Positions 29,791 through 45,893 of a stretch of 46,256 nt of DNA are shown here, piece by piece. Under the pieces are notes generated by a model. That model searched no databases and had not been told where the DNA came from. It was given only the letters and a program-made list of their open reading frames with translations. The position numbers and the translations under genes were made by a program. Location: the IMG/VR virus record IMGVR_UViG_2579779052_000002; one strand, 5' to 3'. Source of the stretch: a virus. Taxonomy: Duplodnaviria; Heunggongvirae; Uroviricota; Caudoviricetes. The stretch's first letter is position 1, and the number at the start of each line of letters is the position of its first letter.

Positions 29791-30098
29791 TGTGTTACTC
29801 CCGTCTGGTGTGTCAGTTCGGCTATTCTCTTATCCAGTTCAGCAATGGCCCGTTTATCCGCGTTACAGGTTTCCAGTGCATCCAGAAGGCGGTCGCCCCA
29901 TATTCCGAGGTTTCCCCATGTGGGTTGGTCAGGGAAGGGGGGAGGCGTTACCGGCATGGTCAGCGTCTGCGGTATAAGCCGGACTGACGGCGCTGGCCGT
30001 GGCGCGTTCTGCGTGCCTGCGCAACCTGTCAGTAAAACGAGCGTCAGGCAAAGCGTGGGCGCATTCATCTTTTGCAATATCGTTGCGTAGCTGTTCAC
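29787..30098 (-). CDS. lysC: o-spanin lipoprotein (P2 LysC-like), overlapping i-spanin
   Basis: Signal peptide plus lipobox (LTGC); starts inside the i-spanin gene in another frame and extends past it; stop overlaps nanS-p start. Confidence 0.65.
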   Translation of the reverse strand: MNSYATILQKMNAPTLCLTLVLLTGCAGTQNAPRPAPSVRLIPQTLTMPVTPPPFPDQPTWGNLGIWGDRLLDALETCNADKRAIAELDKRIAELTHQTGVTQ

Positions 30099-30336
30099 GT
30101 CTTACCTCTCCGTCCTGATTGCGTTGCTGATTGTCCGCGCGGAGTTGAGCCAGCACCTGCTGCATATCCTGTACCCCGGCGCTGATGATATTCAGTGTGT
30201 CGACGGTACTTTTCAGGGTGCTGGCCTGCGCTTCGTTTCTGGCGTTCTCCCGGCCCAGCGACCACGACAGACGCATGGATGTTCCCCATGCGGCAATCAG
30301 AAGGAAAGCGACGCCAAGCGTGGGCCAGAGCTTCAT
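29929..30336 (-). CDS. lysB: i-spanin (P2 LysB-like)
   Basis: Start chosen at ATG 30336 (MKLWPTLGVAFLLIAAWG..., N-terminal TM then coiled coil); ATGA-coupled to the endolysin gene. Confidence 0.65.
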   Translation of the reverse strand: MKLWPTLGVAFLLIAAWGTSMRLSWSLGRENARNEAQASTLKSTVDTLNIISAGVQDMQQVLAQLRADNQQRNQDGEVRREQLRNDIAKDECAHALPDARFTDRLRRHAERATASAVSPAYTADADHAGNASPLP

Positions 30337-30725
30337 GCCGGATAGGCTCCGTGTGGTAACTGAAAATGCGGTCCGTCTTTCAGGGTCTTCCAGTCGCCGC
30401 CCCATTCCACCGGAATATTCAGTTCCCGGCTGGCCTGTCTGAATGCTGCTGCGATTTTTTCGTACAGCGGCCATTCCCATGACACCTGGCTGCCAACATA
30501 AGCCACAACATCCACGGCATGCCCTGTGAGATGGCGACTGTTCATGGTCTGGCTCTTGCCTGTGGTCACGAGCTGCTTCTGACGATAACGACTGCGCAAT
30601 CCTTCGGTGATACCAAAATCCACTTCCGAGATTTCCAGCGCCCGTCGGGTCACTTTCACCAGATCAGGATTTACACCCTGCAAATTCTTTTCGCTTCGGC
30701 TGCTGAATTTAAATGTGTTGCTCAT
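30333..30725 (-). CDS. endolysin, L-alanyl-D-glutamate peptidase (M15 family)
   Basis: 130 aa with HLTGHAVDV zinc-binding-type motif; sits between holin and spanins. Confidence 0.7.
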   Translation of the reverse strand: MSNTFKFSSRSEKNLQGVNPDLVKVTRRALEISEVDFGITEGLRSRYRQKQLVTTGKSQTMNSRHLTGHAVDVVAYVGSQVSWEWPLYEKIAAAFRQASRELNIPVEWGGDWKTLKDGPHFQLPHGAYPA

Positions 30726-31045
30726 TCGTTCCTCTCCTTCACCCTGCGATCAAATATTGCAATAACCTTGTCGCGTGCTTTCTCTGCGCCCATAAAACCG
30801 ATTGAGGCACCAAAAAACGTCACTGCATCCTCAGGGATCCCGAAGAAGCGCAGCGACCCGGCCACGGCCATGGCAAGAACGCCGCACGCCAGCGATCCCG
30901 TTACGGTCTGAACCAGTGTTCGTCCGTCATAAAGACTCATCAGCGCGGAAATGCTGACAGCCGCGCCTACTGCATACACCGTTGGCAGGTGGTCAAAGAG
31001 CCACGCAATAACCTGCTCTGTGATCCCTGTTTGAATGGTGCTCAC
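30722..31045 (-). CDS. holin (P2 Y-like position)
   Basis: GTG start with GGGGGGAG RBS directly after X stop; 107 aa with hydrophobic segments. Confidence 0.6.
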   Translation of the reverse strand: MSTIQTGITEQVIAWLFDHLPTVYAVGAAVSISALMSLYDGRTLVQTVTGSLACGVLAMAVAGSLRFFGIPEDAVTFFGASIGFMGAEKARDKVIAIFDRRVKERNE

Positions 31046-31047
31046 TG

Positions 31048-31248
31048 CTACTCCCCCCACAACTGAATCATTTCTCGTTTCTTCTTCTCCGGCTCCGGCA
31101 TCTCCACTTCCTGCCCGGCGTCCAGAAATACCTGCTGACAGAGTCCGGGGTTGGCATCCAGCACCTTTTCGGTGACGCCCCGTGTCGTGCCGTAGTACCG
31201 GAAACAGAGCGAATCCACGGTGTCGCCTTCCAGTGCCTTCACTTTCAT
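31048..31248 (-). CDS. X: tail protein X (P2 gpX-like)
   Basis: MKVKALEGDTVDSLCFRYYGTTRGVTEKVLDANPGL... matches P2 gpX (MKTFALQGDTLDAICVRYYGRTEGVVETVLAANPGL...) as recalled. Confidence 0.8.
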   Translation of the reverse strand: MKVKALEGDTVDSLCFRYYGTTRGVTEKVLDANPGLCQQVFLDAGQEVEMPEPEKKKREMIQLWGE

Positions 31249-31742
31249 CAGCACAGCTCCGCAAACATTCGCGGTCGTCCCAGAATGTCAGAGATGGCCC
31301 AGCTCACATCGCGCCACAAATCCGATGTCTGTATATCCAGTGCGTCCGCCCGGCGGTCGCCCTTGTCCGTTGTGTCCGCATCGCGGTAACGCTCCAGAAT
31401 CAGGGCGCGTGTGGCGGTATAAACAGCATTGCGCCAGTGCCAGAGATTGACGCTTTCTCCGTTAATTACAGGGGCCGGAACATCGGCCAGCGTCTGATAG
31501 CCAGCCGCCTGTTGTTCCTGCTGCCATGCTTCCAGCTCGCGGGTAACGTGTGCTATGGCCCCGGTGGCGGTATGCAGCAGGCGGGAGGTGGTCACGCGGC
31601 CCGGCAGTCGTACCGCCAGACGCAGCTCACGCAGCACAATATCCGGCCAGAATGCACCCGCTGAAATGCGAGTGTCGCCATCATCGGTATCGGTGATGTC
31701 GTCCTCTGCGGGGCCGGGGTTAGTTCTGGCAACCATACTCAT
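31248..31742 (-). CDS. L: head completion / stabilisation protein (P2 gpL-like)
   Basis: Start chosen at ATG 31742 with AGGAG RBS; similarity to P2 gpL as recalled (EQFWPDV.../AVSEILG). Confidence 0.8.
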   Translation of the reverse strand: MSMVARTNPGPAEDDITDTDDGDTRISAGAFWPDIVLRELRLAVRLPGRVTTSRLLHTATGAIAHVTRELEAWQQEQQAAGYQTLADVPAPVINGESVNLWHWRNAVYTATRALILERYRDADTTDKGDRRADALDIQTSDLWRDVSWAISDILGRPRMFAELC

Positions 31743-31843
31743 GGGGTTCACTCCTGAAAAAATCGGGCGGTGGGTGCGCGGTGTAAACGGTCACGGAGTC
31801 AAACCGGAACACCGCGCACGCCGCCCGCTGACGGGGTCAGTCG

Positions 31844-32644
31844 TTAACCGCGCTTTGCCTTCTGCGTCGCGGTGGTTTTTCGTGTTGCAGGCTTCCGCGT
31901 TGTCTTTTTATTTTTGCTGCTTTCGTCCTGCGCCTGCTGTGCGCTGGCGTCTTCTGGTTCGGCTGCGGAATCGGCTTTTTTCAGGGCGCGGGAAAGGGTT
32001 GCAATCTCGCGTTTCACACCTGCGTTCGGGTTCAGGTGCATCGCTTCGCGCAGCAGCTTCAGTGAAGAGGCCATGTTGTCTGCATCGGTCAGGCCACGAC
32101 GGGCAAAGGCACACGCCTTGCATAATTTGGCGCGCACTTCGTCCGGAATGTCCTGGTTGGCGACAATTTCCCAAAGTGTGTCCAGTGGTTCGATAAAGGC
32201 GGATAAATCCGCGTCGGCATCCGTCCCAGCCTGCGTCAGTACCGGGTTGCAGATTTCTTCGGTCAGTACCGTGGCAGCAGTACGGCCAAAGTTATCCGGC
32301 ATGATGAGGTTGTGACGGACCACATATGCACCAATACGCAGCGCCAGCGGAAGATCGCCGCAGTCAATCGCCCACACCATCAGCGTGGCAATTACTTCGT
32401 CCTGTTGCCCGCCGTCAGCCTCCAGCGTTCCCTCAATCCAGCCGGAAAAGTCCGGCAACAACTCTTTTTTGATGGCGGCTTTCGCGCTTCTGGCCTGTAT
32501 GGCCTTTAGCCTGGCCTGTGCCAGACGCAGACGATACAGCACTTCTTCATGCGCGGTACACGCGGCGTGGTCCACACCTTCATTCGCCCGGCCTGCGCGC
32601 TGTGCCATCACGTTCTGCCAGTGTTGTTGTGCAGGAGTAATCAT
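31844..32644 (-). CDS. M: terminase endonuclease (small) subunit, P2 gpM-like
   Basis: 266 aa with GGAGAG RBS; position between N and L; basic C-terminal tail. Confidence 0.8.
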   Translation of the reverse strand: MITPAQQHWQNVMAQRAGRANEGVDHAACTAHEEVLYRLRLAQARLKAIQARSAKAAIKKELLPDFSGWIEGTLEADGGQQDEVIATLMVWAIDCGDLPLALRIGAYVVRHNLIMPDNFGRTAATVLTEEICNPVLTQAGTDADADLSAFIEPLDTLWEIVANQDIPDEVRAKLCKACAFARRGLTDADNMASSLKLLREAMHLNPNAGVKREIATLSRALKKADSAAEPEDASAQQAQDESSKNKKTTRKPATRKTTATQKAKRG

Positions 32645-32689
32645 TTTTTCTCTCCGTTACAGGCGGGCATGATGCCCGCCGTGAGTTGA

Positions 32690-33742
32690 TTAGCTGTCGG
32701 CGAACTTCAGGCCAGTGACCATCGCGCACTTGCCATAGTCTTCAACGACATAAGCGTCATTGATGGACTGGTAGGTGGCGATGCGGTTGTATTCCGGCTC
32801 GTCTTTCATCAGACGACGCATTGAACCTTTCTGCCAGTAAATCGACAGGTTGTTGAACGAGGTGATAAGCATCGTTGCATCCGGGAAGAACGGCGCAAGG
32901 AACACGCCCAGCCCGCCAATGGTGCGCGATGACAGGATGAGCTGCCCGGCAAGTAATTCCGCATTGGGATTCTGGCCGCTGATGCTGTTCAGCACGGGCA
33001 GACGCAGCGAGTTAAACAGGTTGCGCCCCATAATCACCACGAGGTCGTCAGCTTCCTTGTGCCATTCATCCAGCAGGGATGAGCGCGCATCCTGTACCAG
33101 AGCATCGGCATTCGCATACTTACCCGCGTGCGCCACAGTGTTGTCCATGTTGCGGGAGGTCAGCGTCACGTCATTCATTACGCGCTCGCTGGCATCGGTT
33201 CTGATGTGCTCCAGCCAGCCCACGTTAACGTCCTGAAGCAGCTTGTTGGTGTGAAAATCAGACTCGTAGGCGTGGGATGTGCCGTTAAAGCCAATCATGA
33301 TGCGATCAAGCGCTACCTGCCGGGCGATCTGTGTACTGATACGGGACTGAAAATCGCTGTGGGCCGCCCAGGTATCAAGCTGTGGGTACGAAATAAAGGT
33401 ATCGTAGTTCACCTGTTCGCACTGGTACTGACGAGACTTCATATCGATCACGTTATTCGGGTTACGGCGTTTGATGCCGTCATAACTGCTATTCGTGCGC
33501 GCAATTGGCCCGGTGGTGTCCAGGAGGATTTTTTCGCCTTTCTGGTCGGTCACGCCGATCACGTTAATTCTTTTCGTAAATTCGGTACTTTCCTTTGAGG
33601 CGTTTTCAAAACGCTGCTGCACCGCGGGTTCCACGGTAAATCGCGATACCAGTGCAGATACCGGGATATTGTTAAGCGACGCCTGCTGCGCCATATAGCA
33701 CCCCAGCTTGTTGCGGGTAATATCTGACATCACCAGATTCAT
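32690..33742 (-). CDS. N: major capsid protein, P2 gpN-like
   Basis: 350 aa; KFTVEP, INVIGVTDQKGEK, DLVVIMGRNLF segments align with P2 gpN as recalled; start could instead be ATG 33730. Confidence 0.85.
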   Translation of the reverse strand: MNLVMSDITRNKLGCYMAQQASLNNIPVSALVSRFTVEPAVQQRFENASKESTEFTKRINVIGVTDQKGEKILLDTTGPIARTNSSYDGIKRRNPNNVIDMKSRQYQCEQVNYDTFISYPQLDTWAAHSDFQSRISTQIARQVALDRIMIGFNGTSHAYESDFHTNKLLQDVNVGWLEHIRTDASERVMNDVTLTSRNMDNTVAHAGKYANADALVQDARSSLLDEWHKEADDLVVIMGRNLFNSLRLPVLNSISGQNPNAELLAGQLILSSRTIGGLGVFLAPFFPDATMLITSFNNLSIYWQKGSMRRLMKDEPEYNRIATYQSINDAYVVEDYGKCAMVTGLKFADS

Positions 33743-33765
33743 AAAAAATTTGCTCCTTTGTCTTA

Positions 33766-34602
33766 TCAGAAGTCAGCCAGCTGGTCGGAGGCTGCGCCCG
33801 TTGCGGTGAAGCGGTTCTGCGGATCGCCGTCCTGCGTGCGCAGTTTTTCCTTCAGTGCTGTCAGCTCTGTGGTCAGTGACGTGATTTTCTGGCGGTCCTG
33901 CTGATGGCGGGTTTCCAGCACATTAAAACGGTCGATAATGTCGGCCTGTGATGTTGCAACGCCTTCCACCGCTTCCTGAATACGGGAGAAACTGGCGTCA
34001 TCCGCTTTGCGGCCACGACCAATAATCCCCATTACGCGGTTAAACCACTGGGTGCCTTCTTCCTGGCGTTGTTCTGCCATTTCGATGATTTCAGACTCGA
34101 TGGCTTCGGAGATAAGCGGTGCTTCACCCTGGATACTGTTGAACGTCATCACCGCCTGACGCTGCTGTGCCGTGAATTTCAGGCGCTCAGTGCCCAGGCT
34201 TGCCGGGGTGTCGGTCATCGCCAGCCCGACCAGATAGGCACGCCCGTTAACGGAGAACTGCGGGTGCAGTTCGATACTGGAATAGATTTTCTTGCCGTCA
34301 GCGACAAGCTGCTTCATGCGCTCGGTCGGTTCGATTTCTGCATACAGCGCAGTACGTCCGGCCAGCGGGCCTTCCGTAATATCTTCCGTACTCAGCGCGG
34401 TGACATCGCCCATTGCGGAAAATTCGCTTGACGGGCATGGCGAGAGATAGTGCTCAACGTTCACGCGGGCAGCGTAAACATCCGGGTTGAAGTTCTCGGC
34501 GGCTTCACGCAGATGCACCGGACTGATTTCACGGCCATCAACAGTTGATCCGGAGACAGCCACGCGAAACTTTTTGCGGGATGTCTTTTTTTCATTAGCC
34601 AT
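33766..34602 (-). CDS. O: capsid scaffolding protein, P2 gpO-like
   Basis: Start chosen at ATG 34602 (MANEKKTSRKKFRVAVSGSTVDGREIS...), aligning with P2 gpO N-terminus as recalled. Confidence 0.85.
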   Translation of the reverse strand: MANEKKTSRKKFRVAVSGSTVDGREISPVHLREAAENFNPDVYAARVNVEHYLSPCPSSEFSAMGDVTALSTEDITEGPLAGRTALYAEIEPTERMKQLVADGKKIYSSIELHPQFSVNGRAYLVGLAMTDTPASLGTERLKFTAQQRQAVMTFNSIQGEAPLISEAIESEIIEMAEQRQEEGTQWFNRVMGIIGRGRKADDASFSRIQEAVEGVATSQADIIDRFNVLETRHQQDRQKITSLTTELTALKEKLRTQDGDPQNRFTATGAASDQLADF

Positions 34603-34756
34603 AGTTTTTGCCCCTCTGACTGGTTCTTCAGTCATGATGGCAAAGCGTAACAGGCTGATACAAAGGGATTTTGTTGTAAGAAAACGGCCAGAACAGGGGG
34701 TTAAGGAGAACAGTTTCGCGCGCGGGTAATCTTCCTGTAATTACTCAGGGGGAGCA

Positions 34757-36508
34757 ATGATTCAGGACGCTTTTGTGCGCCAGCGTGCGCGGCAACTTTA
34801 CTGGCAGGGTTATCCGCCCGCAGAAATATCACGTCTGATGGGAATAAACCCGAACACGATTTATGCGTGGAAAAAACGCGACCAGTGGGATGAAACGCCA
34901 CCCGTGCAGCGTGTCACGCAGTCCATCGATGCGCGCCTCATCCAGCTTACTGAAAAACAGAATAAAACAGGCGGTGACTTTAAGGAAATAGACCTGCTGA
35001 CCCGGCAGCTTAAAAAACTGCATGATGGCCAGCCGGATGCGACGGTCACAGGAAAGAAAGGCCGGGCGAAAAAACTCAAAAATCATTTCACGCCGGAACA
35101 GATTGCCGCACTGCGGGAAAAAATCATCAGCAGGCTGGAGTGGCATCAGCGGGGCTGGTTTGACTCCCTGACCCTTTGCAGGGAAGCCGGGATACGTAAC
35201 AGGATGATCCTGAAATCCCGACAGATTGGGGCGACCTGGTATTTTGCACAGGAAGCTCTGCTGATGGCGCTGCGTGACGATGTGGCGCAACCTTACCAGC
35301 GTAACCAGATTTTTTTGTCTGCGTCGCGTCGTCAGGCGTTCCAGTTTAAAAGCATTATTCAGAAGGCCGCGGCTGAAGTTGATGTGGAGCTGAAAGGGGG
35401 CGATAAAATCATCCTCTCCAACGGCGCAGAGCTGCATTTTCTCGGCACTTCTGCTGCGTCGGCACAGTCCTATACGGGCAATTTTTATTTTGATGAATTT
35501 TTCTGGGTCAGTCGCTTTGCTGAACTGCGCAAGGTGGCTGGCGCTATGGCAACCCTCAGCGGACTGCGGCGCACCTACTTCTCCACGCCATCCACCGAAA
35601 CGCACGAGGCATACGCCTACTGGAACGGCGACCGCTGGAACGAGAAAAAGGCCACGCATAAACGCCAGCGTTTTTCTGTGGACTGGAAAACTCTGCATAA
35701 CGGGCTTATCTGCCCTGACCGGACGTGGCGGCAAATTGTCACGCTGGAAGATGTGGTCAATCACGGCTGGAAACACACCGATATCGACGAAATTCGTGAT
35801 GAAAACACCGAAGACGAGTTCCTCAATCTCTATATGTGTGAGTTTGTCCGCGAAGGGGAATCGGCATTTAACCTGAATATCCTGATTGGCTGCGGTGTTG
35901 ACGGATACGACGACTGGAAAGACTGGAAACCTTTTGCTCCCCGCCCGATGGGGAATCGTCCGGTATGGATTGGGTATGACGCAAACGGCAGTAGTGGCAA
36001 CGGCGACAGCGGCGCTGTGTCCGTGGTGGTTCCTCCGGCTGTTCTTGGTGGCCGTTTTCGAACGGTGGAGACGCGACGCGTTCAGGGGCTGGAGTTTGAA
36101 GAACAGGCCAGAGTCATTGAAGAGTTCACGTATCGCTACAACGTGGAACACATCGGCATTGATGTGACGGGCGGGAACGGGGAGGCTGTTTATCAGATAG
36201 TGAAACGGTTTTTCCCTGCTGCTATTCCGTACACCTTCACGCTGTCATCAAAACGGTCGCTGGTACTGAAAATGCTGCAAATAATGCGTGCCGGGCGGTG
36301 GGAATACGATCGCGCCGAACGCGAGCTGGTCGCGGCCTTTAACGCCGTGCGTAAGGTGAAAACACCGGGCGGCTTTATCACTTACGAAACGGACCGCGCG
36401 AGGGGGATCAGCCACGGCGACCTTGCGTGGGCAACCATGCTTGCTGTCATTAACGAACCGATTGGCGGCGAAGGAGAAAACGAGCGTTTCACGGTTATGG
36501 AGTTCTGA
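34757..36508 (+). CDS. P: terminase ATPase (large) subunit, P2 gpP-like
   Basis: 583 aa with GGGGGAG RBS; divergent from O as in P2; ATPase-like region around KSRQIGATWYFA. Confidence 0.9.
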   Translation: MIQDAFVRQRARQLYWQGYPPAEISRLMGINPNTIYAWKKRDQWDETPPVQRVTQSIDARLIQLTEKQNKTGGDFKEIDLLTRQLKKLHDGQPDATVTGKKGRAKKLKNHFTPEQIAALREKIISRLEWHQRGWFDSLTLCREAGIRNRMILKSRQIGATWYFAQEALLMALRDDVAQPYQRNQIFLSASRRQAFQFKSIIQKAAAEVDVELKGGDKIILSNGAELHFLGTSAASAQSYTGNFYFDEFFWVSRFAELRKVAGAMATLSGLRRTYFSTPSTETHEAYAYWNGDRWNEKKATHKRQRFSVDWKTLHNGLICPDRTWRQIVTLEDVVNHGWKHTDIDEIRDENTEDEFLNLYMCEFVREGESAFNLNILIGCGVDGYDDWKDWKPFAPRPMGNRPVWIGYDANGSSGNGDSGAVSVVVPPAVLGGRFRTVETRRVQGLEFEEQARVIEEFTYRYNVEHIGIDVTGGNGEAVYQIVKRFFPAAIPYTFTLSSKRSLVLKMLQIMRAGRWEYDRAERELVAAFNAVRKVKTPGGFITYETDRARGISHGDLAWATMLAVINEPIGGEGENERFTVMEF

Positions 36509-37554
36509 TGAGCAGAAAAAATAAAAAAGTGCGCATGAGTTCACGCATTGATCTCGCTGATGCGCTCAGGAAAGAATCATCGCTCAGTGCATTCACATTT
36601 GATGGTCCTTATCGCCTGACCGGGCATGACCTGCTGGACAATATGTACTGTGCTGATAACGGACGGTGGTATGAAACCCCGGTGGACTGGTACGGTCTGG
36701 CAAGAGCAGCCCGGCAAACGTCCTGGCATCAGTCTGCGCTTTACTTTAAGCGCAATGTATTACTCGGTTGCTACATCCCGCACCCGCTGCTTTCCCGGCA
36801 GGATTTCTCGGCGCTGGCGCTGGACTGGTTTGTGTTCGGTAACGCATTCCTTGAGCTTAGAAGCAATATGCTCGGCGAACCGCTTAAATTACGGCACGCC
36901 CTGGCGAAATACATGCGACGCGGAAGCGATCTTGAATCATGGTGGTATGTGCAGGATGGCAAGGACGCGTTCCAGTTTCGCCCTGGCAAAGTGTGCCACC
37001 TGATGAATCCGGATATTAACCAGGAAATCTACGGCATGCCGGAATATCTTGGCGCATTACTCTCGGCCAGCCTTTCTCATTCGGCGGACATGTTCAGAAA
37101 ACTGTACTACGACAACGGATCCCACGCCGGGTGCATCATCTACATCGGTGCAGCGCAGGTAAACCGCGAAAGCATGGACTCCCTGAAAGAAACGTTACAG
37201 GGCGCGCGTGGTGGTGGTGCGTTTAAAAACGTACTCATCCATGCGCCCAACGGGGGCAAAGAAGGTGTGCAAATTTTGCCGTTCCAGCAGATCACTGCAA
37301 AGGATGAGTTCATGAATGTTAAGGCGGCATCCCGTGATGATGTGCTGGCTGCGCACCGCGTTCCGCCGCAACTGATGGGGGCGATGCCGGGCGAAAAAAG
37401 TGCGTTTGGTGATGTGGAGAAGGCCGCGCGGGTTTACGCAATTAACGAGCTGATGCCCGTCATGGAGGCCATGAAGCACATCAATGACTGGCTTGGCGAA
37501 GAGGTGATCCGCTTTAACCCTTACGCACTGCTAGATACCCAGCCCACATCCTGA
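36508..37554 (+). CDS. Q: portal protein, P2 gpQ-like
   Basis: 348 aa, start overlaps P stop (TGATG); P-Q order as in P2. Confidence 0.9.
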   Translation: MSRKNKKVRMSSRIDLADALRKESSLSAFTFDGPYRLTGHDLLDNMYCADNGRWYETPVDWYGLARAARQTSWHQSALYFKRNVLLGCYIPHPLLSRQDFSALALDWFVFGNAFLELRSNMLGEPLKLRHALAKYMRRGSDLESWWYVQDGKDAFQFRPGKVCHLMNPDINQEIYGMPEYLGALLSASLSHSADMFRKLYYDNGSHAGCIIYIGAAQVNRESMDSLKETLQGARGGGAFKNVLIHAPNGGKEGVQILPFQQITAKDEFMNVKAASRDDVLAAHRVPPQLMGAMPGEKSAFGDVEKAARVYAINELMPVMEAMKHINDWLGEEVIRFNPYALLDTQPTS

Positions 37555-38005
37555 CGCGCTTCGCTTGTCTGCTGCTTCGCCGGGGCATAAAAAATTTATG
37601 CCCCGACTCTCCAGCTCCTGTATCAATCAGATAATTTCACGACGCTTTTCTGCTTATTGTCATCATCGGCGGTCAGACTCTTACGCAATCCCACCGCGTT
37701 GACTGCATGTTCTCGCCGCCTCAGTGCGATTTTGACGGCCTTATCTGCCACCCATCAAATCAAAAGCCCTCACGTCTTTTTCACGCTCAGCGTGAGAAAT
37801 ACAGCCATTCTGTTGTGTCGCTGCGACATCGTTCAGGGGATGCTATTTACCCCCTGAAACGCGGGCTGTTCCCCCGTCACCTGCGCGCAGAAAAAACGCG
37901 TTTTTTTGTGCACGTACGGATCCTTGACGGATCCAGCCACCACGCGGGCCGGAAGTACAAAAAGTCGTTCAAAAAAATTGTGCAAACTTGTGCACTATCG
38001 TGCAA

Positions 38006-38031
38006 ACAAAAAAAGCGCCTTATCGGCGCTT
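38006..38031 (-). terminator. intrinsic terminator after the 38040-38309 gene
   Basis: Minus strand AAGCGCC-GATAA-GGCGCTT followed by TTTTTTTGTTTG. Confidence 0.6.
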
Positions 38032-38039
38032 CAAAAGTA

Positions 38040-38309
38040 TCAATTGTTGCTGTTTATTAATCGCCAACCACGAACATATGCTTCATAGGCATCTCTGTGC
38101 CTTACAGTTCCAGCCTGGCTAAACGGAATGTTAGCTAAAACTAAATCATTCTGAGCCATAGCGCGTCCTTCAAGCGCATCTTTTATGCCTAGCTCAAAAG
38201 CACAGGCAGCGCATTTGTGCCGACCTTCTTGTCCTTGATATTCAGGGAGAGACAGAAATGTTGGATTATAACGATGAGGGTTCTTGCAAATACCTGTTTT
38301 AGCCCGCAC
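38040..38309 (-). CDS. hypothetical protein (89 aa), possible Cys-containing small regulator
   Basis: GTG start with GAGG RBS; followed by a strong terminator; no family recognised. Confidence 0.45.
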   Translation of the reverse strand: MRAKTGICKNPHRYNPTFLSLPEYQGQEGRHKCAACAFELGIKDALEGRAMAQNDLVLANIPFSQAGTVRHRDAYEAYVRGWRLINSNN

Positions 38310-38673
38310 TTTATTTACCTCATAGGAAAAATATGCGTGCCTTTACAGAGGTGCGTGTAAGCAATAAAATATACGACGCACATTTTGATTTACTTCGGAA
38401 GGCACGCATATCAGGTTAAGTGAGTCCGACCGAGTTTTACGCCCCAATAGTTGCTGCTATTGGGGCGTTTTGCATGGACAATGCCGCGCAATTATCTTGT
38501 CGCTCACAATGCGAACGATCTTACAAAAAGGCACATTACTGTCAAGATAATTGATCGTTTTAATCGATAGATAATAGACAATCTATTTGTTTAACAGATC
38601 GATTATTGAAGTAAGTGTGCCAAATGGAATGATACTGTCTCTATAAACGTGAGCATTTTTCGCGCAGATGCTT

Positions 38674-38985
38674 TTACTCAGGAAATAACGCCCGGATATT
38701 CCCAGCCATCTGGCTGGTTATCTTAGCCACTGGTGCAGACTGTGCTTCAAACTTTTTTGAGCTGATTTGTGTCACAGGTAACATCTCATCATCAGCCCAT
38801 GCGGCCAGTCGGTAAGCCTCTGCCGGATTCGTCTTCAGAAGTGCCAGCCCGGCCAGAAAAGCCACGCGTTGGCCGCTTTTGCGGGCTTCTGGTGTAAGGC
38901 TGTCCAGCCAGGCGCATGCTTCTCCTTCGTTCTTGACGGCGGCGGGCTTCAGATAGAAACTTATCCGTCTGGTTGGTGTCGTCAT
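38674..38985 (-). CDS. parR: ParR/StbB-like centromere-binding protein
   Basis: Start chosen at ATG 38985 (MTTPTRRISFYLKPAA...KSGQRVAFLAGLALL), resembling plasmid R1 ParR N-terminal RHH region as recalled; directly downstream of parM. Confidence 0.6.
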   Translation of the reverse strand: MTTPTRRISFYLKPAAVKNEGEACAWLDSLTPEARKSGQRVAFLAGLALLKTNPAEAYRLAAWADDEMLPVTQISSKKFEAQSAPVAKITSQMAGNIRALFPE

Positions 38986-38989
38986 TGGT

Positions 38990-39949
38990 TTACTCCTTGT
39001 CCATTGCGTACAGCCCATTAACCAGAGCAAACTGTGGCACCCCGTCCGCGATGAAAGTCGCATTAACTCCGCAGGCTTCGCGGATAGCGGGTGCCACAAT
39101 CTCCGCCCCGCCACCGACAACCATCACCCGCCCGTAACCCGAAAAAACCGCCAGCGCGCGGATCACGCGTTGTTTCAGTGTTTCTTCCTTTTCACGAATA
39201 ACCGCCATCAGGCTGGCGTAATGCGCGTCATTGTGGATGTGCTGGCGCAGCCAGGCTTCATTATGGCGATGTTCGATAATGGTATTGGCGATGTGGTGAC
39301 TGGTGCGCATACCGTTAGTGGCCATCACCGACAGTACGGCATCGGCCATAAGAGAAACGCCTACGTGTGGATCGCAAAACACCTGGCTGATACCTGCCAG
39401 TTGCCCCTGAACCTTTGCCACATCCAGCGTGGTTCCGCCCAAATCCACAATCAGCAGGGATTCAAACGGACTCATGTCAGCCAGTGCTTTAAAGCCAGCC
39501 GGAATGGATTCAGGCATAACCCGTACGTTACGGATAGTGAATGCTTCGCCGTTCTGGTACTCCACCGGGCGCATGACGTTCGCTTTTTTGCGGTTGATGT
39601 TGGCCATGTCCGGCTGTGCGTTTGTGTCGAAATATTCGCTCAGTGGCAGGGTAACAACCACATCCACTTCCTGTGGCGTGATGTCTGATTTGACCAGCGC
39701 GTGATGAATGGCAATGACATTCACATCGCTGTACTGGTATTGCGTGTCGGTCGTCTGGACAAAGCGATCGCTGACCGGATCAAAACCATAGCGCACGCCA
39801 TCAAGCATGTAGTTAGCAGGCTGCGAGCCACCGAACGGCGCAGACCATTCCGACTTGAAGCTGTTCGGGCTGATGGCGTTGCGGCGTTCGCCGTTCTCAG
39901 TCCATGCCAGCTTGATGTTGGTGGAGCCGTCGTCGATGTAAATTTTCAT
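38990..39949 (-). CDS. parM: ParM/StbA-like actin-fold partition ATPase
   Basis: 319 aa; motifs IDDGSTNIK, MPESIPAG, LIVDLGGTTLDV, VMVVGGGAE match actin-like ParM (R1 StbA) as recalled; AAGGAAAA RBS. Confidence 0.8.
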   Translation of the reverse strand: MKIYIDDGSTNIKLAWTENGERRNAISPNSFKSEWSAPFGGSQPANYMLDGVRYGFDPVSDRFVQTTDTQYQYSDVNVIAIHHALVKSDITPQEVDVVVTLPLSEYFDTNAQPDMANINRKKANVMRPVEYQNGEAFTIRNVRVMPESIPAGFKALADMSPFESLLIVDLGGTTLDVAKVQGQLAGISQVFCDPHVGVSLMADAVLSVMATNGMRTSHHIANTIIEHRHNEAWLRQHIHNDAHYASLMAVIREKEETLKQRVIRALAVFSGYGRVMVVGGGAEIVAPAIREACGVNATFIADGVPQFALVNGLYAMDKE

Positions 39950-39977
39950 GTCGGTTTTCCTTATGTTGATTAATTAA

Positions 39978-40096
39978 TCGTTTACGGGATTCTGAAATCC
40001 CGTTTTTGCCTGTTTTGTGCGCGCTTCATATATCGCTGCGCGTTTTTTGCTCATTTACGGGATTCGTGAGTCCCGTTTCTGTCTGTTTTTTGTTTC
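39978..40096. repeat. two ~45-bp direct repeats (73 bp apart), each with an ACGGGA-loop-TCCCGT hairpin followed by a T-rich tract
   Basis: TTTACGGGATTCTGAAATCCCGTTTTTGCCTGTTTTGT and TTTACGGGATTCGTGAGTCCCGTTTCTGTCTGTTTTTTGT; one copy in the A-parM spacer, one in the last codons of A. Confidence 0.8.
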
Positions 40097-42866
40097 CACT
40101 GGTCAGGCCACCCCGCAGCAGGTCTGCTTTGCGGCTGGCGCGTTCAGTGGTTTCACTGATTCTCTGTGCGTGCTCTGCGTCGCGGATGGCGCGCAGCATG
40201 TCAGAAAGCACGGTAACGGGTGTTTTCATGGTGTTCTGGTCCTGCTGAAGTGTGGATGCCAGGCGTGCGGCGGCTTCAGGGTCTGATGCCCCCAGCTGTG
40301 CCAGATAGCTGGCGACCGGGTTATGGCGGATCTCCGTGCTGCTTACGCCATGATTACGGCTCAGACGCTGCCAGAGCTGCGTGATTCGGCTGTCCGGGCG
40401 GGTATCCGGTTTGCGTACAATTTCAAATCCCTGCGGTGCAATGATGCTGCCGTCAACGTACAGACTGCCGCCCCGTAACAGGTGCTGCATCTGTTGTTCA
40501 CCGATATGCAGGCCGAGAGATTCAGCAGACTCCCGCCATTCTTTAGCGAGTAACTCGTGGTTATCAGGCAAAGGCCGCTGCTGTTTGCGGCTCTGTGTCC
40601 AGTTCTGCATTTCATCGCTGCTGTTTTTTGCCTGTTTGTCACGAAGCGAACGCATCAGCGCCCGGCGTTCGTGCCGTTTCAGTGAGCGCATCCATTCATT
40701 TACTTCAACGCCGTCAGGAAGCTGCGGCCACGGTGCTGGCCGTTCTTCCGGCTGTTCTGTCCCGTTGTTGCCTGTTTCCTGTACACGGGGACAGTTATTG
40801 CCACGAGTCCAAGGGGCGGCAGGGCCGCCCTGAAGGTCAAAACCATTTTCGCGGGCGCTGTCTTCCGCTTCCGGTTTACGTCTTACCAGCTTCCAGTTAT
40901 CCGGATGCGTGCACACACGGGAGGATTCCCCGATGAATGGCGACCAGATCCCGTAAATCTGTACACTCTGTTCGCCGTAATCGTTCAGCTCATCTGCGAG
41001 GTCGTAGGCTGTGCGAATCAGGTAGTCCTTGCGCGGAACAAGTACGCCACCCTGTTTTTCAATGTAGGTGGCAAAACATCCGGCATCAGCGGCAGCGAGT
41101 ACCGCATCCATTGCATCATCCTTCAGCCGTTGTGGGCCTTCCGGGTTGCGTGCCATCTGGCTGGCAAGGCGGCGGAGTTCACGCCATACCTGACGGGAGG
41201 GGATGCCAAAGAACTGGAACTGGCGGACCCGGTGAAGGCGTGCCCAGCCGATGGCGCGTTCCACGCTCTCGGCCATTGATTTTCCGGTTTCGTGGTCAAC
41301 GCGTGGCTTGCCCGTTTTCGGGTCGATGCCATCCACGGCGCGGCTGTCCAGGTTCTTTCCGATGTAGGTGGCGATGTAGCTGGTTGGCGTGCCTTTTGAG
41401 CCGTCGACATACTCCACCTTAAAGCGCGGAGTAATATCATTGCCCAGCTCGTGGCGGTCTTCCTGAATGGCAATATCGCGGGTGTGGGACACAATGGTGT
41501 CGATTTCTTCCGGATGAGCAAAGACCATCATATGCCAGTGCACGGTGCCGTCATGGTGAGGCTCCACCGTGCGGATGCCATACCAGCGCAGGCCGTCGCG
41601 GTTCAGTTTCTTGCGGACCGCCGCAAAAAACGTGTTAACCAGGTAATCGCTGGAGTCGCGCATGGTGGCCCCGTTCCATTTGGGATTCGGATGACCGTTC
41701 TCTGTTGTGGCGTGGTATTTTGACGGGCAGGTGACAGTCAGAAACACCGCTCTGTCGCCACGGGCTTCGGCCAGAAGTTCCAGCCCCTTCATGGTGGCCA
41801 TCATTTCTGCCTTACGGTGAATCGGGTTACTTACTCCCGCGTAATACACTGTCTCGAGATCAATCGTGAACCCGTCTTCGTTTTCCAGCATGAAACTTTT
41901 CAGGAAATCGCGTGTTTTCTCGCGCTGTGCGCGAAACTCGCTTAACGCGTCCTGGCTCAGATAGGGTGATGTTTTTCTGGAAACCAGACAGGCGGCGCGG
42001 AGTTGTTCTTCTCTCCACTCGCAACGTAACAGCCACAGTTTGCGTTTCCACCATTCCGCACAGGTCAGGCGAAGGATTGCGCCCGGCAGCAGCTCCGTGT
42101 CCGGTTCATTCCTCCGGTCTTTGTCTGTTGTCAGAGCGTCATAATGTGGAGGCATAGCGTGCAGGTGTAACGCCATGCGGGCCAGCATCTGATACGCCTT
42201 CAGCGTTACATCCATGGTCAGCTCGCCATCGGTCGCGCCAAAGCCATCGCAGAGTTTTTCAAAAGTGCCACTGAACATCGCCGCCGTCATGGTGGCCAGC
42301 GTCTGTATCTGGTGTTTGTTGAGCTGCGGCAGGTAAAGCAAATCGTCCAGGCGTTCGCGTCCGGCAAGGGAGCGATAGCCCGGTGTCAGCCAGCGGCTGT
42401 CGGTGCGGTCCAGACGTTCGAATATTTTGCGCAGGGTTCCGCGCGCGTAGCGTTCAGCCTGCCAGCTCTTTTTGCCTTTCTGACGATCGGCTTCCTGCTT
42501 CTTGCGCAGAAAAGAGAGGTGGCGGCTCAGAGGTTCACGCAGATAAACGGGAAGCACCTTCAGTGTGGCAAAAGCACGGGCCACCGGGTCTTGTTCTGTT
42601 GCCTGACGCTTGCTGATGATGCTTTGTGCCAGCTTTTCACGCTGTCCGGCTTCCTCAAGGGATGCCATGAGTTTTTTACCCACGGTGGATTGTGCGAAAA
42701 AGGCTTCTTCCTTCGCTTCCTGTTCTTCCTGTGCCCTTTTGTTTGCCTCAAGGTAGTAACGGATGGCGCGTTGCAGGTCGGTTTCAGTTTCCTGCCTGCG
42801 CTCCGTAAATCTGGCCGGATCAATGGCTGGCCGTGGTTCATTCCAGCTCCATGCAAACGCACTCAT
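40026..42866 (-). CDS. A: replication initiation endonuclease (P2 gpA-like, HUH rolling-circle family)
   Basis: HUH motif HWHMMVF and tyrosine motif SYIATYIGK; start set at ATG 42866, ATGA-coupled to the upstream gene (ORF track starts 27 nt earlier). Confidence 0.8.
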   Translation of the reverse strand: MSAFAWSWNEPRPAIDPARFTERRQETETDLQRAIRYYLEANKRAQEEQEAKEEAFFAQSTVGKKLMASLEEAGQREKLAQSIISKRQATEQDPVARAFATLKVLPVYLREPLSRHLSFLRKKQEADRQKGKKSWQAERYARGTLRKIFERLDRTDSRWLTPGYRSLAGRERLDDLLYLPQLNKHQIQTLATMTAAMFSGTFEKLCDGFGATDGELTMDVTLKAYQMLARMALHLHAMPPHYDALTTDKDRRNEPDTELLPGAILRLTCAEWWKRKLWLLRCEWREEQLRAACLVSRKTSPYLSQDALSEFRAQREKTRDFLKSFMLENEDGFTIDLETVYYAGVSNPIHRKAEMMATMKGLELLAEARGDRAVFLTVTCPSKYHATTENGHPNPKWNGATMRDSSDYLVNTFFAAVRKKLNRDGLRWYGIRTVEPHHDGTVHWHMMVFAHPEEIDTIVSHTRDIAIQEDRHELGNDITPRFKVEYVDGSKGTPTSYIATYIGKNLDSRAVDGIDPKTGKPRVDHETGKSMAESVERAIGWARLHRVRQFQFFGIPSRQVWRELRRLASQMARNPEGPQRLKDDAMDAVLAAADAGCFATYIEKQGGVLVPRKDYLIRTAYDLADELNDYGEQSVQIYGIWSPFIGESSRVCTHPDNWKLVRRKPEAEDSARENGFDLQGGPAAPWTRGNNCPRVQETGNNGTEQPEERPAPWPQLPDGVEVNEWMRSLKRHERRALMRSLRDKQAKNSSDEMQNWTQSRKQQRPLPDNHELLAKEWRESAESLGLHIGEQQMQHLLRGGSLYVDGSIIAPQGFEIVRKPDTRPDSRITQLWQRLSRNHGVSSTEIRHNPVASYLAQLGASDPEAAARLASTLQQDQNTMKTPVTVLSDMLRAIRDAEHAQRISETTERASRKADLLRGGLTSGNKKQTETGLTNPVNEQKTRSDI

Positions 42867-43252
42867 GGCTGGTATCCCGTCACGCGCTGCCACTCCTGTG
42901 AGAAGAGGGCGGAAAGGCGGTTAAATTCAGCGGAGTATTCACTCAGCGAGGCACACCCGCCAGCAGTGCGATGCGCCAGCATTGCCGCAAATATGGAGGC
43001 CGGGGAGTCGTAATACGCCAGCAGTGATTCGCCGTGTGGTGTCAGGCAGTGCAACGCCAGCCCGTGTGGTGTGAAGTCCACGCGGTAGCAGTCGTCTACT
43101 GTGAAATAAAGGGTGTCTGCATTCTCCGGTTTTGTGGTGCGTGCTCTGTTGTCACGACCACGGATGTAGAGATCAAATAATCCCTGAAGAACGGGAGCCA
43201 GACGGGTGTCCTGTGTGCGCACCCATCTTGTGAAGTCATGAGCGTCAATCAT
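42863..43252 (-). CDS. hypothetical protein (129 aa), early operon
   Basis: ATG ORF translationally coupled to A. Confidence 0.55.
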   Translation of the reverse strand: MIDAHDFTRWVRTQDTRLAPVLQGLFDLYIRGRDNRARTTKPENADTLYFTVDDCYRVDFTPHGLALHCLTPHGESLLAYYDSPASIFAAMLAHRTAGGCASLSEYSAEFNRLSALFSQEWQRVTGYQP

Positions 43253-43360
43253 GCTGCAATTCTCTTTACTACAGATGTGCGAAGGCTTCCTGCCAAAAAA
43301 CTCAGAAGCGGTCGGTTACAGGAATTGACGTTCTACGAGTAGTTATTGCTGGCTTGAGGT

Positions 43361-43579
43361 TCATTTCTGTTTAATTCCGTGCATGCTGTAGAAGAAATCA
43401 AAAGTGTTATCTATGCGTATCATGAGCTCACGCTGCATCGCTTCTGGTGTTTCTGGTTCGCCTGGTGAGCCAACTCCCGCGAAGAAATCACCGATCTCGC
43501 TTTGAATAAGTGCCTTTAGCGTTGCTGAGGAACTCAGGTGTGTTCGGTGATGTCTGCGAGTGATTCTTCTCCTACTCAT
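43361..43579 (-). CDS. hypothetical protein (72 aa)
   Basis: ATG ORF, ATGA-coupled to the upstream gene. Confidence 0.45.
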   Translation of the reverse strand: MSRRRITRRHHRTHLSSSATLKALIQSEIGDFFAGVGSPGEPETPEAMQRELMIRIDNTFDFFYSMHGIKQK

Positions 43580-43779
43580 TTGCGTGGATCCTGTACCTGT
43601 CGGATAAGATTCACCCGCGCCACATTAGTGGCGCAAAAGTAAGTGCCGTCAGTGAGATAGATGTGGTGTGCATCCTTTTCTGAGCGGTGTTTGTCGATTG
43701 TGGTAATCAGACGTTCGTCGACTTCGTATTCACGTCCTCTGGAGGTGAAACGAACGACAGGAAAATGCTTAATTGCCAT
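43576..43779 (-). CDS. hypothetical protein (67 aa)
   Basis: Start chosen at ATG 43779 with AAGGAGG RBS (ORF track starts at an upstream GTG). Confidence 0.55.
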   Translation of the reverse strand: MAIKHFPVVRFTSRGREYEVDERLITTIDKHRSEKDAHHIYLTDGTYFCATNVARVNLIRQVQDPRK

Positions 43780-43865
43780 TACGCCTCCTTGGTGTGTGTG
43801 AATACCTCTGCGAATGCAGATTGTGTTCACATTTTTTTATTTAAGCTGGGGTTTTATTTATGCGG

Positions 43866-43979
43866 TTATTCGCCAGTGAAAAAGCGTTCAATCTTTTTTA
43901 CTGAATTAATAATTCGCATAATACCAATTGCACAAACCACCGAAATAATAAGAACAATCCAGGATATAAATATACTCAT
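43866..43979 (-). CDS. small hydrophobic peptide (37 aa, single predicted TM)
   Basis: Below ORF-track cutoff; MSIFISWIVLIISVVCAIGIMRIINSVKKIERFFTGE, ATGA-coupled to the upstream gene. Confidence 0.35.
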   Translation of the reverse strand: MSIFISWIVLIISVVCAIGIMRIINSVKKIERFFTGE

Positions 43980-44218
43980 GCGATATTTCCCAGTTTGTAC
44001 GGCTCAATATGCTCCCCGCATTCTGCGGCGCAGATAAGCTCAGAAAGTTCATTAAGCGCATCCAGATCGTCAGCGTAAAAAGCTACGTCATACAGACTCC
44101 GGATAGCCCTGGTCAATGAGTCACGGGCTGCACGTTCTGAATGAGCGCCGGATGCGCTTAAACGAAAATAAAAACGCTCAAGTGCTTTGTTGATGAGAGT
44201 TTTATATTCTTTATCCAT
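43976..44218 (-). CDS. hypothetical protein (80 aa)
   Basis: ATG with AAGGGTG RBS. Confidence 0.5.
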   Translation of the reverse strand: MDKEYKTLINKALERFYFRLSASGAHSERAARDSLTRAIRSLYDVAFYADDLDALNELSELICAAECGEHIEPYKLGNIA

Positions 44219-44229
44219 CGCAACACCCT

Positions 44230-44508
44230 TTAATCTGCTTTCTGAATTTCAGCTTCTGAATCCATGCAGATAATCTCGATATAGGGTTCATCGCCATTAA
44301 CCTGACGAGATTTTTCGGCTTCGCTAATTATTTCGCGAATGATCTGGTACGGAAGCTCTACAGTCAGGCGTGTACCGTTCAGATAAACGTAGGTAGCTGC
44401 GTTTTTTTCAGATGGAACTACTCCGTCAATAGCTGATGCGCGTAATAACAGTTCACCGCGAAAATCAATAAAGCGGATAAATACACCTTGTGCATGGTCT
44501 TTAGTCAT
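44230..44508 (-). CDS. hypothetical protein (92 aa)
   Basis: ATG with AGGTG RBS. Confidence 0.5.
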   Translation of the reverse strand: MTKDHAQGVFIRFIDFRGELLLRASAIDGVVPSEKNAATYVYLNGTRLTVELPYQIIREIISEAEKSRQVNGDEPYIEIICMDSEAEIQKAD

Positions 44509-44518
44509 AAAGCACCTG

Positions 44519-44869
44519 TTATAAAGCAGCCTGTTTAATAAAACTTTGCCCGCGAAGCAGACGATCGACTGTGCGTAGTGCTTCGTACAATGTGAAATCC
44601 TGCCCGAACTGATTATCGCCGCTGCTTAATGCAAAAATGCGGTTTCCGGTAAACGGATTGTGTGGGCATCTGTGAACCACGATTCCAGCTTTCTCAATCA
44701 GCCAGGTGTGTTCGCCGATTTGTTTTACAGCGTGCCCATCTGGTGTTGCGTGCGTCTCGTTCAGGTTATAGCGGCTGTTACTACGTGATGCACTGGTAGC
44801 GACGTGGTGTACATGGCGTTCTACGCCATTACGAAATTTGGAGTATGGATTATTAGTGTTTTTTTTCAT
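44519..44869 (-). CDS. hypothetical protein (116 aa)
   Basis: ATG ORF in early operon; weak RBS. Confidence 0.45.
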   Translation of the reverse strand: MKKNTNNPYSKFRNGVERHVHHVATSASRSNSRYNLNETHATPDGHAVKQIGEHTWLIEKAGIVVHRCPHNPFTGNRIFALSSGDNQFGQDFTLYEALRTVDRLLRGQSFIKQAAL

Positions 44870-44890
44870 GATGATGCTCTGTTCATTGTT

Positions 44891-45094
44891 TTAGCTGTTA
44901 GCCAAAGCGTCTTTTAACATCGCCACAAGGTTTACTTCAGGCTTTTCCATTTTGGCGCGTTTGGGGCGGATAATAATTCGACCGTCAGCCAACATCTTTT
45001 TGCATGTATTAAGAGGGATACCTGTTATCTCTGCATATTTCTGCAGGGATACATAGGGGGCATTCACATTGATATTGATGGTTATACCTGACAT
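44891..45094 (-). CDS. cox: Cox-like HTH excisionase/regulator
   Basis: 67 aa; APYVSLQKYAEITGIPLNTCKKMLADGRI resembles P2 Cox HTH (IPYQEFAKLIGKSTGAVRRMIDKGKL) as recalled. Confidence 0.55.
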   Translation of the reverse strand: MSGITININVNAPYVSLQKYAEITGIPLNTCKKMLADGRIIIRPKRAKMEKPEVNLVAMLKDALANS

Positions 45095-45110
45095 CCCACT
45101 AGCCTCCTGA

Positions 45111-45317
45111 TCAGGAAGATTTGTTTTGTTCTTTCTGGGTTAGCTCTAGGCCGCGAAGGAAGATCATGCGCGCCATGTTAGAGGATGAGCGTTGTTCTTT
45201 AGCTGCCATTTCATCAATGACGGCTCGCTCCTCGAGGGACAGCCGAAGTGCCAGTCTTGGACCTGTGGCGGTGTTACGCGGAATGCGTGATCTGGTATCG
45301 TGAAGAACTTGTTTCAT
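45111..45317 (-). CDS. small ribbon-helix-helix-like regulator, first gene of the early operon
   Basis: 68 aa, RLSLEERAVIDEMAAKEQRSSSNMARMIFLRGLE; no obvious RBS (possibly leaderless); divergent from repressor. Confidence 0.45.
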   Translation of the reverse strand: MKQVLHDTRSRIPRNTATGPRLALRLSLEERAVIDEMAAKEQRSSSNMARMIFLRGLELTQKEQNKSS

Positions 45318-45359
45318 AGTGGTATATTGTGATCATCTAATAGCTCGTGAAATCATTTT

Positions 45360-45377
45360 GGTATCAAAAAAGATACC
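45360..45377. promoter_or_regulatory. candidate operator GGTATC-AAAAAA-GATACC in divergent repressor/early promoter region
   Basis: Perfect 6-bp-arm inverted repeat 15 bp upstream of the repressor ATG; a related half-site GGTATA lies at 45321. Confidence 0.4.
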
Positions 45378-45392
45378 TGTCAAGGTTTTTGT

Positions 45393-45797
45393 ATGAAAAA
45401 TGATATTGGTCAGCGGTTGCGTGAGGAAAGGGAAAGATTGGGACTTAGTCAAGTTGCCATGAGCGACATTGGTGGAGTCAAAAAGCTAACTCAGCTTAGA
45501 TATGAGAAAGGAGATAGCTTTCCTGATGCTGCGTATTTGGCAGCGCTGTCTCGTTTTGGCCTTGATGTTCAGTATGTTGTGTTGGGAATTCACTCACCTG
45601 AAACTTATAACGATGATGAGCAGGAGTTGATTACTCGCTTTCGAGCAGCTTCGTTAGATGTGAAAAACGCGGTGATCGGGGCTTTAAAAGGTGCGATCAG
45701 TGAAAAGGAAACTCAGCCATCAGGACGTGAGTTAAATATTTCTGGTGGTAATAACCGTATCGCTGGTCGTGACTATAACGAAACTAAGGGTAGGTGA
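45393..45797 (+). CDS. XRE-family HTH repressor (immunity repressor candidate)
   Basis: 134 aa; N-terminal HTH (IGQRLREERERLGLSQVAMSDIGGVKKLTQLRYEKGDSFP); divergent from the cox-like operon. Confidence 0.7.
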   Translation: MKNDIGQRLREERERLGLSQVAMSDIGGVKKLTQLRYEKGDSFPDAAYLAALSRFGLDVQYVVLGIHSPETYNDDEQELITRFRAASLDVKNAVIGALKGAISEKETQPSGRELNISGGNNRIAGRDYNETKGR

Positions 45798-45812
45798 TAG
45801 TAGGGAGGTGAC

Positions 45813-45893
45813 ATGGCCGTCAACTCAAACGGTTCAAACAATCGCGTTGCTGGGCGTGATTTTCACGAAAAGAATATTCAGATAGAGCGATAT
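45813..45893 (+). pseudogene. ORF truncated by IS1 insertion
   Basis: ATG 45813 with GGGAGGTG RBS; reads MAVNSNGSNNRVAGRDFHEKNIQIERY then runs into the IS1 left end at 45894. Confidence 0.55.

Follow-up and report, generated by a model that had tools for sequence, protein, structure and literature searches.

A probable cos site of P2-family layout in a P88-like prophage

The non-coding interval 37555-38039 of the window, that is, of the whole 46,256-nt stretch of viral DNA analysed here (IMG/VR record IMGVR_UViG_2579779052_000002), very probably contains the cos site of a P88-like prophage (genus Xuanwuvirus, P2 family), with a functional unit of ~159 bp (37846-38004) built like the cos sites of P2, 186, and P4. 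A preliminary description of this DNA had expected cos just beyond the portal gene Q by synteny with P2, and its placement at 37846-38004 is now supported by that synteny, by conservation throughout the family, by the presence of the segment in a satellite, and by a layout colinear with the cos sites of P2, 186, and P4, which were defined by experiment. Judged from its sequence, the site appears to be a P2-family cos that has diverged, an ordinary feature and no different kind of element.

A P2-family prophage, reversed with respect to the P2 map, makes up the right part of the window. Its nearest phages are P88-like, the 485-bp interval being 92-96% identical in 16 phage records, and homology of the window to P88 is limited to about 29843-45900. 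The genes that surround the site, or would act on it, are the following:

31248-34635, minus strand: scaffold, capsid, small terminase, and head-completion genes
31844-32644, minus strand: small terminase subunit (gpM homologue; PHROG 74, E = 1.7e-80; 37% identity to P2 gpM), the presumed cos-recognition protein
34757-36508, plus strand: large terminase subunit (gpP homologue; 44% identity to P2 gpP), the presumed nicking and translocating enzyme
36508-37554, plus strand: portal protein (gpQ homologue; 47% identity to P2 gpQ)
38040-38309, minus strand: small cargo gene, adjoining the non-coding stretch on the far side from the portal gene
40026-42893: replication gene gpA, beyond the cargo and plasmid-partition-like genes

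As in P2, the proposed cos sits between the portal gene and a variable cargo/gpA region, with the genes for gpP and gpM nearby. The plasmid-partition-like pair between the cargo gene and gpA (window 38674-39949) is conserved in P88-like phages and unusual for an integrating P2-family phage; one of the two proteins has a Plasmid_stab_B domain, while the other matches PHROG 691 (partition protein) and has a counterpart annotated as ParM in related records. At its left end, the P88-like element carries holin, endolysin, and spanin genes and then breaks off at about 29843; window positions 1-29843 belong to a lambdoid or Stx-type prophage, whose late region supplies lysis, terminase, head, and tail genes there. 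Next to the break, 27910-29790 encodes a 626-aa protein of unknown function (PHROG 143; the matching region is labelled DUF1737-like in a similar phage record). No P2-type tail genes occur within the 46-kb window, and the P88-like element may therefore not form particles by itself; the cos and terminase genes of this truncated prophage look intact.

Comparison of related prophages, which represent more than 30 sequence types, shows 37846-38004 as the only conserved part. Alignment of 49 unique P88-like sequences revealed that 37845-37915 is almost invariant and 37915-38004 slightly variable, and that homology collapses at 38005. The stretch 37860-38004 is present in 1140 of 5426 complete E. 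coli genomes, most matches ending at query position 145, which corresponds to 38004. Homology of relatives thus ends at 38004/38005, where variable cargo starts. Scanning of IMG/VR with an invariant 16-mer returned about 100 true loci, which fall into 33 clusters (below 85% identity) once the 34th one listed is set aside as a chance match. These 33 clusters have a common layout that reads CCC..T.GCG.GGGCT...CCCCCGTCACCTGCGCGC, about 20 variable bases, TTTTT.GTGCA, a variable spacer, A-tract-TGTGCA-N5-TGTGCA-N5-TGTGCA, and unrelated cargo, the invariance of the block CCCCCGTCACCTGCGCGC being largely fixed by the scan patterns. The same layout was evident in species genomes of Serratia, Symbiopectobacterium, Kluyvera, Erwinia, Pantoea, Mixta, Klebsiella, Kosakonia, Citrobacter, and Enterobacter. 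In the clades scanned, the distance from the portal stop codon to the downstream search pattern CCCGTCACC is 184-320 nt; this pattern starts at 37873 in the window, 10 nt into the predicted cohesive end. The elements of the interval and its borders are listed below:

37555-37845, no strand: portal-to-cos spacer, specific to P88-like phages and outside the conserved core; contains the 37781-37795 palindrome and other inverted repeats
37581-37605, plus strand: perfect hairpin CGGGGCATAAA-AAA-TTTATGCCCCG (11-bp arms, 25 bp), 27 nt past the portal stop codon
37846-37862, plus strand: Q-side (portal-gene) flank of cos, ATTTACCCCCTGAAACGC, where satellite homology begins; near-invariant among P88-like sequences
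37863-37881, plus strand: cosN equivalent, GGGCTGTTCCCCCGTCACC (minus strand 5'-GGTGACGGGGGAACAGCCC), the predicted G+C-rich 19-nt cohesive end, which includes the invariant block of the family, with predicted nicks at both borders
37882-37900, plus strand: 19-nt spacer TGCGCGCAGAAAAAACGCG, containing an invariant GCGCGC and part of the A6CGCGT7 palindrome
37901-37913, plus strand: T7 run and GTGCAC, forming TGCA box 1 at +27; the counterpart in P2, 186, and P4 is TTTTAATGCA at +25
37914-37972, plus strand: spacer of variable sequence but conserved length; contains the duplicated ACGGATCC, a G-rich GGGCCGGAAG, and an alternative cut candidate (37941-37959)
37973-38004, plus strand: A-tract and three (T)GTGCA boxes at 37980, 37990, and 38000 (+99, +109, and +119), forming the distal edge of cos
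38012-38032, minus strand: intrinsic terminator of the cargo gene 38040-38309, past the homology break, part of the variable cargo module and outside cos

The preliminary description had seen no match to the P2 cohesive end. This held at up to three mismatches, for which GGCGAGGCGGGGAAAGCAC has no match in the window, but not for a more diverged counterpart, since 13 of 19 positions agree at 37863-37881. This ungapped match of GGGCTGTTCCCCCGTCACC to the P2 19-mer has the same orientation to the portal gene and is the best on both strands of the 485-nt interval. Its single-register P is 1.8e-4, yet with about 0.17 matches of this quality expected over all registers of the interval it is marginal when taken alone. 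Sister sequence types match the P2 19-mer at 14-15 of 19 positions, and local alignment of the P2 and 186 19-mers to several sequence types repeatedly chose the invariant block. Alignment with the cos regions of P2, 186, and relatives, as had been proposed earlier, yielded a colinear layout. An nhmmer profile of the P88-type site (37846-38004, 32 representatives) matches the right arm of P4 cos with E = 5e-5 in 46.6 kb and, weakly and in the same register, that of 186. When extrapolated, these two alignments put the known 19-nt ends of P4 and 186 no more than 2 nt from 37863-37881. Both borders of this segment are conserved between helper and satellite, and the intact 19-mer is present in P88 and PhiSM, which are reported as active phages (PMC5285337, PMC6456863). 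We infer from these comparisons that the terminase cuts at the borders of the 19-mer. Contig breaks in this region of IMG/VR are scattered (+53, +55, and +70 from the start of CCCGTCACC at 37873) and look like assembly breaks, a metagenome scan for physical ends returned 15 true loci, all internal, and our literature search retrieved nothing on the cos of P88, Xuanwuvirus, or P88_4B11.

Between the 19-mer and the cargo, four copies of GTGCA fall within 111 nt (37908, 37980, 37990, and 38000) against 0.12 expected (Poisson P = 7e-6), and both this cluster and the 10-nt-phased triple are the sole instances in the 46-kb window. The three distal copies, exactly 10 nt apart, account for the repeated motifs that had been noticed at about 37978-38006; the copy at 37908 had escaped that list, and the TTGTGCA repeats are boxes 2-4. 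With respect to the 19-mer, TGCA occurs at +27, +99, +109, and +119 in 118 unique P88-type arms. The 105 unique P2-type arms, which form 57 clusters below 75% identity, have it at +25, +31, +97, +107, and +116-120. Conservation does not extend to the DNA between the boxes. P4 and sequence types B-E have CAGACCGCGCC in common in the spacer beyond box 1. The spacer 37914-37972 varies in sequence between types while box spacing is kept, and this combination of fixed length and free sequence suggests a constraint of helical phase or wrapping. By analogy with known terminases, the box array 37973-38004 would likely be a binding array for the small terminase subunit. An IHF site near box 2 found no support, as the core ATCAANNNNTTR of the consensus WATCAANNNNTTR is present in one of 119 arms and the window has TTCAAAAAAATTG, with a spacing of 5 instead of 4. 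P2-type cos sites (P2 33450-33574, the right ends of 186 and P4, and the 105 IMG/VR arms) have three ATGCA boxes at +97, +107, and about +119, which places them outside the usually quoted 55-bp core. In IMGVR_UViG_2648501669_000002, the DNA between two TTGTGCAC repeats (37906-37913 and 37988-37995) is lost, that is, the equivalent of 37914-37987. The 19-mer is kept there and the spacer and two boxes are gone, which looks like a natural cos-arm deletion through the 8-bp repeat.

A weak E. coli match to the site (77% over 145 bp) proved to belong to a small island and to no prophage of the P88-like kind. This satellite-like island was recovered from E. coli DLI.6n (locus L004, 3144-12132) and E. 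coli PEC240 (locus L129, 4170-13947). Its genes code for an integrase, a Toprim primase of 889 aa, an Icd-like protein, an Ogr/Delta zinc finger, and a homologue of the P2-family major capsid protein; portal and terminase genes are lacking. The capsid homologue is 423 aa long, 36% identical to the gpN of the window, and has an extra N-terminal part of ~120-130 aa. Lacking sid and psu, and with a primase barely similar to P4 alpha, the satellite is therefore not P4-like. Satellite and window have only 37846-38004 in common, at 77% identity, and in the satellite this segment sits between the delta-like gene and the integrase gene. Since the satellite copies exactly this segment, we take 37846-38004 to be the packaging signal, for which such sharing is strong comparative evidence. 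P2 and P4 likewise have just cos in common (PMC9122126). The satellite-type cos was found at no less than 90% identity in about 56 complete E. coli genomes, and 16 of its 30 best matches come with a second, helper-type copy, a count that ignores clonal relatedness. We infer that the satellite depends on the terminase of a P88-like helper.

Side by side, the two arms run colinearly. In P2, the 19-mer is followed by a 19-nt spacer (CGCCCGCTTCACGGGGCGG), TTTTAATGCA at +25, about 68 nt, and three ATGCA boxes; in the window, it is followed by a 19-nt spacer, TTTTTTTGTGCA, 67 nt, and three GTGCA boxes. The 19-nt spacers themselves are of low identity (7/19 by hand count). In addition to the equally oriented 19-mer (13/19 identity), the window resembles P2, 186, and P4, which have 19-nt 5' cohesive ends, in the position of cos next to the portal gene, in G+C-rich flanks with GCG, and in helper-satellite sharing. 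It differs from them in six of the 19 cohesive-end positions, in the box sequence (GTGCA versus ATGCA), in a 2-nt shift of all boxes, and in the invariant GCGCGC, which lies on the cargo side of the 19-mer in the window but on the portal-gene side in P2, 186, and P4. Furthermore, the portal-to-cos spacer spans 308 nt in the window versus 167 nt in P2, and the terminase proteins are merely 37-44% identical to those of P2. Ziermann and Calendar reportedly described a 55-bp core of P2/P4 cos in 1990. The segment common to helper and satellite is about 159 bp long for the P88 type, as compared with 55 bp for P2 and P4 (PMC9594776). Beyond enterobacteria, the cos of the Ralstonia phage phiRSA1 has been measured as 5'-GGTGAGGCGGGGTCCAAC (GGTGAGGCGGGG...), and that of Smp131 was deduced by analogy (PMC5694545, PMC3931495). 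With these two included, P2-family cohesive ends vary around GG(C/T)GA.G.GGGG, a pattern that GGTGACGGGGGAAC of the window fits. The hosts of phiRSA1 and Smp131 differ from that of the window prophage. The cos of lambda is organized as cosQ-cosN-cosB and includes an IHF site and the R sites, to which gpNu1 binds. The window resembles it in having a nicking site beside a one-sided array of phased repeats, presumably for small-terminase binding. Unlike lambda, however, it would have ends of 19 nt rather than 12 nt and departs from the IHF core consensus, and the two sites have no sequence similarity.

P2 terminase consists of gpM and gpP, and cosB and cosN of lambda provide a model for how such an enzyme acts. 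By this analogy, gpM (31844-32644) would bind the phased TGCA boxes on the cargo side and bend or wrap the right arm. The gpM-bound arm would then position the large subunit gpP (34757-36508), and gpP would nick both strands at the borders of the 19-mer, leaving 19-nt 5' overhangs with 5'-GGTGACGGGGGAACAGCCC on the minus strand. The naming of gpM as the box-binding protein and the exact nick positions are the conditional parts of this scheme, whereas the site it would act upon is given by position, conservation, satellite sharing, and colinearity with experimentally mapped sites.

A cut elsewhere in the same cos has to be considered, namely a staggered one in the variable spacer at about 37941-37959 (CACGCGGGCCGGAAGTACA | AAAA), with TGCA boxes on both sides and 37863-37889 acting as a recognition or termination element. 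It stems from LR595891 (P88_4B11), a record that is an exact circular permutation and begins at the position corresponding to 37959|37960, with zero bases lost or repeated. This is the sole database record that opens inside the region, 78 nt beyond the 19-mer and between boxes 1 and 2, and we found no paper on how its termini were set. In the same record (1-125), the 5 nt equivalent to 37860-37864, which span the predicted Q-side nick, are deleted, but this deletion is in no IMG/VR contig. These oddities could reflect a real mutation, an artefact at an assembly end, or a cut elsewhere. The candidate also loosely resembles an inverted P2 19-mer, and its motif GGGC(C)GGAAAGGGCA is retained in sequence types A-E and in the satellite. 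However, that motif is missing in AMSCJX04 and in type F, both of which have the 19-mer and the boxes, and the spacer around it is homologous to that of P4, which is uncut. Moreover, helper and satellite would differ around a Q-side nick at 37941-37959, while they agree at both borders of 37863-37881. We therefore consider a cut in the spacer unlikely; cosN at the LR595891 terminus had been a candidate and was downgraded on unbiased alignments, the nhmmer profile, and box offsets.

Alternatively, the palindromes and repeats in the portal-to-cargo gap could have no relation to packaging and instead be signals of transcription or form a small RNA. The hairpin at 37581-37605 directly follows the portal stop codon, where the terminators tQ of P2 and tW of 186 are annotated, a real terminator exists at 38012-38032 on the minus strand, and the predicted RNA fold of 37555-37860 is far more stable than shuffles on the minus strand (z = -5.97; plus strand, -2.73). 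Yet the hairpin fails as an intrinsic terminator, with no T-run on either strand, hence no U-tract, and a silent terminator scan. Similarly, Rfam at the gathering threshold gave 0 matches in the whole window, and covariation in the portal-to-cos spacer was no better than in slid controls. Signals of this kind would also leave unexplained why a satellite shares only 37846-38004 and why the layout is that of P2 cos. They would complement our reading in 37555-37845 and offer no rival for the core, so that as a substitute for cos we regard them as very improbable. Lower still we rate the chance, which is slight in the extreme, that the interval encodes small proteins, such as those of the 117-aa ORF at 37707-38060 (plus strand) or the 42-aa ORF at 37623-37751 (minus strand). 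Both ORFs exist and several records annotate hypothetical CDSs in the interval, but conservation runs in blocks across types, and the substitutions in 37626-37845 among the 49 unique P88-like sequences are scattered, with no obvious 3-nt periodicity by eye. The 117-aa ORF, in turn, has no PHROG match, crosses the homology break at 38004, and would be frameshifted by the 5-nt deletion of LR595891.

Returning to the cos at 37846-38004, the spacer 37555-37845 that precedes it is not needed to account for packaging. It is conserved (92-96%) only among P88-like phages, and neither the satellite nor the other sequence types have it; the cos-gpQ gap of P2-like phages is known as a hot spot of insertion (PMC5694545). 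This bears on the five motifs that the preliminary description had listed for the region. All of them exist: the TCACGC inverted repeat is TCACGCT-C-AGCGTGA at 37781-37795, the AAAAAACGCGTTTTTTT palindrome lies exactly at 37891-37907 as given, and the CGGATCC duplication extends to two copies of ACGGATCC (37916-37923 and 37927-37934). The palindrome reported as 23 bp at 37573-37595 is indeed perfect, but it measures 25 bp with 11-nt arms and maps to 37581-37605, so that its coordinates were off by 8-10 nt. Of these motifs, the third (A6CGCGT7) and the fifth (GTGCA) belong to the conserved core, whereas the other three fall outside conserved elements. The CGGATCC duplication is in the variable spacer, and the palindromes at 37581-37605 and 37781-37795 are in the lineage-specific portal-to-cos spacer. 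In 600 nt, chance alone readily produces short repeats of 8-12 nt in two copies (the listing has 15 direct and 17 inverted ones), and the significance of the site thus rests on its conservation and not on repeats.

The suspicion, also voiced in the preliminary description, that packaging specificity differs from that of P2 is plausible on sequence grounds, because six of 19 cohesive-end positions differ, gpM is 37% identical, and a separate type of satellite has the P88-type site while P4 has the P2 type. More tentatively, and as a possibility that we would not call probable, the P88-type site may represent a second packaging-specificity group in the enterobacterial P2 family. This group would share a TGCA-box code fixed relative to the cut and be exploited by its own non-P4-like satellite lineage, which has a P2-family capsid gene instead of sid/psu. 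The site leaves the understanding of P2-family packaging unchanged, and its novelty is modest. What it offers is a sequence rule for finding cos (the 19-mer plus TGCA boxes at +27, +99, +109, and +119) in the P88-like prophages that about one fifth of complete E. coli genomes carry, and an exact edge, 38004/38005, for the cos-adjacent defence/cargo hotspot. The data further suggest that cos type separates helper-satellite pairs; if the proposed grouping is true, cos type would predict which helper mobilises which satellite.
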